Source: an uncultured Pseudomonadota bacterium (GTDB lineage Bacteria > Babelota > Babeliae > Babelales > RVW-14). From it: a stretch of 64,000 nt of DNA. The DNA is taken from positions 1 to 64,000 of the forward strand of contig CAZHRK010000003.1 of NCBI GenBank assembly GCA_964534555.1, in the 5' to 3' direction. A model generated the notes under the pieces. It searched no databases, was not told the origin of the DNA, and saw only the letters and a program-made list of their open reading frames with translations. The position numbers were made by a program, and so were the translations under genes. This document shows, one piece after another, positions 11,092 to 12,000 of this stretch; within the stretch, counting starts at the first letter, position 1, and every line of letters begins with the position of its first letter.

Positions 11092-12000
11092 CTAGTTCGC
11101 AGCTTTGCTCGGGAGGAGCGCCTGCCAAGAGTTGATGTTTTTGCCTTGAAGGTTAAGCATGCTTCTGTGGGTTTCGTACTGTTTTATAAACGCATCAAGA
11201 GCAGCTTGGTTGATAACTGTTAGCACACCGTTTTTTATGGTTGCGGCATGTGTGATTGGCGCTAGGTGGTGGTCGCTCCAGAATATCTCGAGTGTATCTG
11301 CGTATCTGAAATAGACATCCATTCGCTCAGCAAACAGTATACCTTTGTCAGCGATATCTTCTGGTGATGATTGGTAAAAACGCTGATCTGTATTTCTATA
11401 TCGTATTGCCTCTACACGGGTTGTATCTGATGCGCCACACAGCAGGAGCGTGAGCTGATAACCAGCGGCTTTGACTGTTTTGAAAAGATTTTCAACATGA
11501 GGGCCTGTAGACGTTGTACCAAATGCTATAGAGTACCCGCCCCCAAATGCCTCATTGAGTAATGTTTGCGCAATATAATTTGAAGCGCCGCGCCACTTAT
11601 TATAGCCATTTTTGATGGTTTCTAGATGATTGCTGGTTTTGCTTGTTTCAAGGCTATTAAGCGAGAGTGCTTGGTAGGTATGTGCCATAAATTTAAGAGC
11701 TCTTTGGTCGGGATCGAGGTATATGTACGGGGTCGCGCTATCAGTTGTTTTCATATAATACTCAAGCGTTGTGCTTTTGCGTGCGCCTGGCCCGCCCGCT
11801 GTTGCGAGGTATTTTTTATGCTCTTGGGGTGTTTGTGACCCAAAGCACACAGACCGAACAACACTCAGGTCTTTGTTGATGAGTGTTTTTTCTTCTGCGG
11901 TGTAAGTGGTAAGGCATGTTTCGATTGCTGTCGGTGGAATCAGCTGGTTCTGCGCTGCTGAAAGAGAAATGGTGCTGCATATTAAAAGTATGAGAAGCAT
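11092..12000 (-). CDS. secreted zeta-toxin-like P-loop kinase domain protein (degenerate Walker A)
   Basis: Signal peptide MLLILLICSTISLSAAQ. ATAGGPGARKST ~ zeta/PezT GGQPGSGKT, YIYLDPDQ ~ VIVIDNDT, GGGYSIAFGTTSTG ~ GYNLVIEGTGRT. The Gly before the Walker Lys is replaced by Arg. Confidence 0.55.
   Translation of the reverse strand: MLLILLICSTISLSAAQNQLIPPTAIETCLTTYTAEEKTLINKDLSVVRSVCFGSQTPQEHKKYLATAGGPGARKSTTLEYYMKTTDSATPYIYLDPDQRALKFMAHTYQALSLNSLETSKTSNHLETIKNGYNKWRGASNYIAQTLLNEAFGGGYSIAFGTTSTGPHVENLFKTVKAAGYQLTLLLCGASDTTRVEAIRYRNTDQRFYQSSPEDIADKGILFAERMDVYFRYADTLEIFWSDHHLAPITHAATIKNGVLTVINQAALDAFIKQYETHRSMLNLQGKNINSWQALLPSKAAN

Follow-up and report, generated by a model that had tools for sequence, protein, structure and literature searches.

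The zeta toxin of plasmid pSM19035 and PezT are UDP-N-acetylglucosamine (UDP-GlcNAc) 3'-kinases that belong to the epsilon/zeta and PezAT toxin-antitoxin (TA) systems. The catalytic base of zeta, Asp67 (Asp66 in PezT), hydrogen-bonds the 3'-OH of UDP-GlcNAc (PMC3062530; for Asp67 also PMC5923241), and the UDP moiety is bound through Arg120 (phosphates), Glu100 (ribose 2'-OH) and Thr128 (uracil) (PMC3062530). PezT/zeta toxins are also on record as orphans that lack a cognate antitoxin (PMC10532202), and the same fold is used by AvrRxo1, a secreted effector that phosphorylates NAD (PMC5491322, PMC5087710). Where among these does the gene described here belong? It lies on a stretch of 64,000 nucleotides that was analysed as a whole and is called the window below (positions 1 to 64,000 of contig CAZHRK010000003.1, assembly GCA_964534555.1), and it encodes a predicted exported, zeta-like phosphotransferase with an arginine in place of the second Walker A glycine. 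Orphan zeta/PezT toxins and the use of the fold as an effector are thus already known; what appears to be new is an exported clade lacking this glycine, of which we found no description in the literature on zeta toxin combined with Chlamydia, signal peptide or effector.

Our preferred reading, held tentatively and at somewhat less than even confidence, is that the protein is an active, exported, ATP-dependent small-molecule phosphotransferase of the zeta/PezT/AvrRxo1 fold that would work at the parasite-host interface, with no part in a TA module. What is observed is a zeta-fold kinase core whose catalytic motifs are conserved, a deviant Walker A, an N-terminus of the export type, no partner gene, the taxonomic distribution of the family and strong purifying selection. 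The gene is a complete open reading frame (ORF) on the minus strand with an ATG start, exactly where the initial annotation had placed it, and the N-terminus of the 302-residue product cannot be extended, as an in-frame stop lies upstream of the ATG. Compared with its 92%-identical relative it gives a dN/dS of 0.096; it is a real gene under strong purifying selection. No paralogue is present in the 64-kb window. The gene and its principal elements are the following.

11092 to 12000, minus strand: predicted exported zeta/PezT/AvrRxo1-like P-loop phosphotransferase, 302 residues, complete gene.
11953 to 12000, minus strand: predicted Sec-type signal peptide, residues 1-16, MLLILLICSTISLSAA, with putative cleavage after SAA (from hydropathy and the family alignment).
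11770 to 11796, minus strand: deviant Walker A motif, residues 69-77, GGPGARKST, with the R74 codon CGC at 11779-11781 and K75 as the Walker lysine (from the sequence and hhalign).
11701 to 11721, minus strand: YLDPDQR, the D96/D98 motif, residues 94-100, D98 corresponding to the zeta catalytic base Asp67 (from hhalign).
11503 to 11520, minus strand: GTTSTG, residues 161-166, corresponding to the zeta substrate loop G117-T122, with G161 and T165 invariant (from hhalign).
11395 to 11418, minus strand: RVEAIRYR, residues 195-202, with the conserved R195 and R202 as candidate lid/ATP-binding arginines (from conservation).

Membership in the zeta group is supported at the level of the family and of the fold. 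Residues 57-204 match the Pfam family Zeta_toxin (PF06414) with 29.3 bits against a cut-off of 22.3 (E=6.9e-7), and precomputed PF06414 matches are present on many homologues. Searches of the PDB by sequence, with the single protein or with the family profile, gave no significant solved relative, so that the link to zeta is visible only through Pfam, hhalign and fold comparison; searches of NCBIfam and PADLOC with the protein returned nothing meaningful, and no PADLOC match. All three visible lines of evidence agree with the zeta/PezT-like kinase fold proposed by the initial annotation, with structure searches backing the overall similarity of the fold only and not residue-level equivalences. 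The polynucleotide kinase-type P-loop kinases Pnkp of Clostridium thermocellum and T4 Pnk align over about 140-150 residues only, score clearly below the zeta group and have no zeta-type substrate loop. In structure, ng_zeta1 from the epsilon1/zeta1 system of Neisseria gonorrhoeae stands much farther off; it is a cytoplasmic toxin of a TA pair, with its own antitoxin.

For residue equivalences the family profile was aligned by hhalign (probability 40%, E=2.9e-4) to a reference zeta sequence that is 100% identical to annotated Enterococcus plasmid zeta toxins and whose numbering agrees with the literature (K46, D67, E100, E116, R120, R158, R171). The alignment given in the initial annotation reappears here, with GGPGARKST opposite GGQPGSGKTS, YLDPDQ opposite VIDNDT and FGTTST opposite EGTGRT. 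It ends at residue 192, before R195 and R202, and no equivalence to R158 and R171 is therefore drawn. The pairs are as follows.

G69, zeta G40: first Walker A glycine.
R74, zeta G45: second Walker A glycine, replaced.
K75, zeta K46: Walker lysine.
D96 and D98, zeta D65 and D67: D67 is the catalytic base.
S140-N141, zeta S95-N96: SN motif in common.
Q145, zeta E100: ribose contact lost.
F160, zeta E116: not conserved, directly before the substrate loop.
G161-T162, zeta G117-T118: substrate loop.
S164, zeta R120: UDP-phosphate contact lost.
T165, zeta T121: conserved.

By this alignment, the phosphotransfer core is retained except for the second Walker A glycine, and the UDP-specific contacts are not. 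The protein shares with zeta and PezT the PF06414 match above threshold, the Walker lysine, the catalytic aspartate, the SN motif and the G-T...T loop, at a sequence identity of 10-11%. It differs from them in the arginine at the second Walker A glycine, the N-terminal signal peptide, the lack of an epsilon or PezA gene, the replacement of the UDP-contacting Arg120 and Glu100 by Ser164 and Gln145, and a chromosomal location in an obligate intracellular parasite; it further possesses family-specific N-terminal helices (23-53) and a C-terminal beta/alpha module (236-302). AvrRxo1-ORF1, a Xanthomonas type III effector and NAD 3'-kinase, is 12% identical; it is delivered by the type III route and its gene lies beside that of the ORF2 chaperone/antitoxin, whereas the window protein carries a Sec-type signal and has no partner gene. 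To our knowledge, no exported relative other than AvrRxo1 has been characterised.

Few positions in protein biochemistry are as strongly conserved as the glycine that precedes the Walker lysine, which is lost here. Reverse-complemented, positions 11770-11796 read GGC GGG CCA GGC GCA CGC AAA AGC ACA, so that the canonical GxxxxGK[ST] is replaced by G69-G-P-G-A-R74-K75-S76; the substitution is real at the level of the DNA. In a collection of 5.8 billion proteins we found 383 homologues, most of them about 300 residues long and sharing 45-50% identity; closer ones reach 92% and 60%. Among 121 aligned close homologues the consensus motif is ATAGGPGARK[TS]T[IT]LE: R74 is present in 118, D98 in 119 and R195 in 118, and K75, G69, G72, D96 and R202, among others, are invariant. 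R74, which 118 of the 121 share, is a family trait; it is neither peculiar to this protein nor a mark of decay.

Sampling more widely, with genome loci and with one representative for each cluster at 50% identity (478 clusters with E≤1e-3), shows how freely the position varies: among the 150 representatives listed, column 74 is occupied by glycine in 56, followed by R (16), C (12), S (11), A (5) and I (3), and by K, H, L, N, M and F once each. The distant, mostly signal-less relatives hold glycine. Regardless of the residue at this position, K75, D96, D98, R195 and R202 are essentially invariant in 77 locus-derived members and 80 representatives; together with the dN/dS value, this points to a working active site with one relaxed position. 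A pseudokinase, as the initial annotation had also considered, is accordingly disfavoured. Such a protein, having lost its P-loop glycine, would no longer turn over ATP and would bind a phosphate-bearing ligand or a host protein, and the bulky replacements (R, I, L, M, F, H, K), the hypervariability of the column between lineages and the crippling of nucleotide binding by glycine substitution in other P-loop proteins would all fit. However, the Walker lysine, the Ser/Thr after it, both aspartates of the DxD motif and both lid arginines persist across the P-loop variants, which is not expected after the loss of catalysis, and MCM ATPases stay active with Ala or Ser at the glycine position. We hold the pseudokinase to be doubtful; the conservation speaks rather for an active enzyme in which the demands on the P-loop are relaxed.

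Some family members depart from this pattern. A second, more distant chlamydial paralogue group, found in Chlamydiae metagenome-assembled genomes (MAGs; loci L061-L080), is about 30% identical, 320-430 residues long and has a canonical AGAPGAGKT P-loop; the first aspartate of its DxD motif is often Cys (CPD), and it differs at position 107 (Arg versus His) and 100 (Val versus Arg), changes that possibly reflect a different placement of phosphate-binding arginines. One Chlamydiae MAG (L033) contains a tandem duplication of the family gene (2927-3817 and 3808-4722), and a 603-residue representative (P0247) has three separate matches to the profile, as would fit a tandem pair or array that has fused.

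A further distinguishing property is the predicted export. The N-terminus, MLLILLICSTISLSAA followed by QNQ, resembles a signal peptide and reaches a Kyte-Doolittle maximum of 2.97 over 10 residues; in the alignment of the 121 sequences the N-terminal columns are hydrophobic and lead into a site of small residues. Judged by hydropathy alone, 110 of the 119 homologues with arginine at position 74 (R-type) have a hydrophobic N-terminus of this kind, and the signal peptide proposed in the initial annotation is thus a well-supported prediction. Its conservation across the family argues against a cytoplasmic location such as that of the zeta and PezT toxins, which poison peptidoglycan synthesis in their producer. 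Loss of the glycine tracks the signal: of the 50%-identity representatives, 28 non-Gly proteins have it and 8 do not, as opposed to 10 with and 34 without among the Gly proteins (Fisher p=1.3e-6, kinship between the sequences being ignored). In a rough neighbor-joining tree the exported non-Gly forms all fall into a single clade, at the base of which stand exported proteins that retain glycine; the likely order of events would be export first and loss of the glycine after. A disulfide between C52 and C188 was considered as a marker of periplasmic folding and rejected, C188 being common in signal-less proteins and C52 rare even in exported representatives.

In Coxiellaceae and other Gammaproteobacteria, by contrast, the family proteins begin with the first conserved helix, and the N-terminal signal is missing. 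Four such signal-less proteins from Coxiellaceae/Gammaproteobacteria MAGs (L048, L054, L057 and L059) have S, A or C at the P-loop position, and one of them (L048) is about 50 residues longer than the typical family member; these could be delivered by another route, e.g. type IVB secretion.

If the protein is exported, does it have to serve against the host? The window protein may be delivered into the host or may stay in the periplasm or envelope, and a kinase resident there could serve the bacterium itself, using host ATP en route to ATP/ADP translocases to phosphorylate an imported host metabolite or an envelope precursor. Such a role would agree with a signal that is of the Sec type only and, in some relatives, lipobox-like, with sources that, where named, are chiefly lineages known as obligate intracellular bacteria, with the scavenging of host ATP by Dependentiae (PMC4776705), and with housekeeping-like conservation, that is, about 45-50% identity across Chlamydiae and the low dN/dS. 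It is less easily reconciled with the lack of conserved synteny across phyla, with the signal-less gammaproteobacterial members, and with a patchy occurrence in Dependentiae, where the protein-collection and species-representative searches found the gene only in two relatives besides the window lineage; genes for interaction with the host are more often spread across phyla in this way. We consider a periplasmic or envelope kinase a serious rival, on account of the lipobox-like signals of some relatives, but a rather less likely one, and favour a host-directed role on the strength of the analogy to AvrRxo1, the effector-like phyletic pattern and a neighbourhood of secreted and eukaryote-like genes.

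This phyletic pattern emerges as follows. The window comes from a bacterium of the Dependentiae (TM6), since its GyrA (54111-56687) shares 75-80% identity with proteins that bear the names Candidatus Dependentiae or Babeliales. Dependentiae are host-dependent parasites of protists with type II secretion components and ATP/ADP translocases (PMC4776705). In species-representative genomes, homologues of the kinase-like protein are found in environmental Chlamydiae (Rhabdochlamydiaceae, Parachlamydiaceae, Simkania), in alphaproteobacterial MAGs including Holosporaceae and Candidatus Finniella, in Coxiellaceae and in Silvanigrellaceae, and where a source is named it mostly belongs to a lineage with a known intracellular way of life; none of the 80 GTDB matches is a locus labelled Dependentiae. 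Since the window protein nests beside chlamydial sequences in the neighbor-joining tree, transfer among bacteria that share protist hosts is suggested. Base composition carries no clear signal of it: with a GC content of 0.454 and a GC3 of 0.436 the gene is at the upper end of ten sampled window genes without being a clear outlier, and a recent-transfer signal was rejected because an MFS gene (GC 0.456, GC3 0.397) and a Bax1-I gene (0.416, 0.426) are comparable.

No partner gene could be identified at the locus or among its relatives. The 368-bp spacer upstream contains no same-strand ORF of more than 29 residues, and in the 780-bp gap downstream there is no plausible partner either, merely a RING-finger gene that is disrupted and some short ORFs that are not conserved. 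When ORFs of at least 45 residues from 80 related loci and the window were clustered all against all, no neighbour family occurred in more than 12 of the 80 loci; the second-largest cluster proved to be an antisense shadow ORF inside the kinase-like gene itself. A downstream transmembrane ORF of 65-84 residues was rejected as a partner, as it occurs in only 7 of the 80 loci, all closely related and chlamydial. The protein is thus not part of a classical epsilon/zeta or PezAT module, in agreement with the initial annotation, which had seen no adjacent antitoxin gene. An ordinary or orphan cytoplasmic zeta/PezT toxin, whose hydrophobic N-terminus would be incidental and whose antitoxin would be unrecognised or encoded elsewhere, could draw on the Zeta_toxin match and on the orphan toxins on record (PMC10532202). 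Against it stand, beyond the lack of any upstream, downstream or recurrent partner, the hydrophobic N-terminus of the close homologues, the absence of a PADLOC match, the UDP-GlcNAc contacts that are not conserved, and a chromosomal position that is syntenic in three relatives and in whose context no mobile-element genes were seen. We regard a toxin of this type as very improbable.

The surroundings comprise the following features.

12001 to 12368, no strand assigned: divergent intergenic spacer between the kinase-like gene and the gene for a 217-residue secreted protein, without an antitoxin-size ORF.
12369 to 13022: secreted protein, 217 residues, divergent from the kinase-like gene.
13056 to 13991, plus strand: DUF2608 (PF11019) protein with a signal-like N-terminus and a HAD-phosphatase-like motif, VVLDLDNTF.
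1427 to 2248, minus strand: second DUF2608 (PF11019) gene.

Weak promoter-like sites are present on both strands of the spacer. In three Dependentiae relatives (L081, L082, L083) the synteny is kept, with the kinase-like gene divergent from a gene for a secreted protein of 214-228 residues and a DUF2608 gene; this arrangement is absent from the chlamydial loci. That a secreted kinase should have a secreted phosphatase-like neighbour could be significant or fortuitous. More generally, the neighbourhood is rich in secreted and eukaryote-like genes (RING, PLA2_B, DUF2608, Bax1-I).

Directly downstream of the kinase-like gene, at 10369-10656 on the minus strand, lies a homologue of a 96-residue RING-finger (zf-RING_2) protein. 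It is 88.5% identical to the intact gene in one of the relatives (L083, 9340-9630) and has an in-frame TAA at codon 16 where that relative reads TGC; probably, the gene either is truncated or has recently become a pseudogene. It is flanked by a sigma-70-like site (11057-11029, minus strand) and a terminator (10355-10327, minus strand), both strong. Farther along the window we find two eukaryote-type PLA2_B genes (cytosolic phospholipase A2/lysophospholipase) at 23175-24824 (plus strand) and 43971-45425 (minus strand) and a second, weak RING-like match at 43530-43724 (minus strand), typical eukaryote-like candidate effectors of an intracellular parasite. A Bax1-I membrane protein (Bax inhibitor-1/YccA family, E=7.6e-50) is encoded at 17149-17838 on the plus strand; in the Dependentiae relatives its gene is conserved beside a MutS2-like gene.

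What could the exported enzyme act on, and how? The initial annotation had proposed that host nucleotide-sugars are phosphorylated. At the 40% probability of the alignment, the counterpart of zeta Arg120 is Ser164, a position with Ser or Leu across the family, and that of Glu100 is Gln145, where most members have Leu; since these UDP contacts are not conserved, UDP-GlcNAc in particular is an unlikely substrate, and the acceptor would probably be a phosphate-bearing host metabolite, e.g. a dinucleotide or nucleotide derivative. Catalysis, the phosphate donor, the acceptor and the final location of the protein are what we infer here. Synthesized with a Sec signal peptide, the protein would act beyond the cytoplasm of the bacterium, where parasite and protist host meet, after release by type II machinery or exposure in the envelope. 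K75 with S76 and T77 would hold the ATP phosphates and Mg, D98 would deprotonate the acceptor hydroxyl, and R195 and R202 would close over the donor. The second Walker A glycine would be dispensable in the exported clade, and in the chlamydial/Dependentiae branch its fixation as Arg would probably add positive charge at the phosphate site. Finally, we propose that the protein folds only after export, so that the producer would need no antitoxin.

Several points weigh against an active enzyme released at the host interface. The residue equivalences depend on an alignment of just 40% probability, and the signal peptide is a heuristic call. Lipobox-like motifs are found in some relatives (L044, L045; 12 of the 110 R-type proteins), e.g. 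LVGC and ITGC in alphaproteobacterial members, and suggest membrane tethering rather than release. Two cytoplasmic Gly-type relatives likewise have no obvious small partner gene in their contexts, so that export would not be the sole route to an antitoxin-free state in the wider family. Replacement of the corresponding glycine in Ras (G15A) strongly weakens nucleotide binding, and catalysis by a P-loop lacking it is therefore not to be taken for granted.

In a bolder evolutionary scenario, which we consider doubtful, one clade of zeta-fold kinases would have moved out of the cytoplasm in intracellular energy parasites from at least four phyla. These kinases would use host ATP passing through the periplasm or the host compartment and would represent true extracytoplasmic ATP-dependent kinases. 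The glycine would then have become dispensable and, in Chlamydiae and Dependentiae, been recruited as a catalytic or charge-providing arginine. Such recruitment of a P-loop arginine has a parallel in thymidylate kinases, where types I and II exchange a P-loop arginine for one in the lid or the reverse.

Irrespective of this scenario, the exported clade constitutes a natural experiment on the need for the Walker A glycine: a few hundred natural sequences exchange it for residues from Ser to Arg, Ile and Phe, with the rest of the catalytic site kept under selection. A 'zeta toxin' annotation within this clade should not be equated with a toxin-antitoxin system. AvrRxo1 rewires host NAD metabolism, and the exported family, being common to unrelated protist-infecting bacteria (Chlamydiae, Dependentiae, Holosporaceae/Finniella MAGs and Coxiellaceae), is a candidate for a shared tool of intracellular life.
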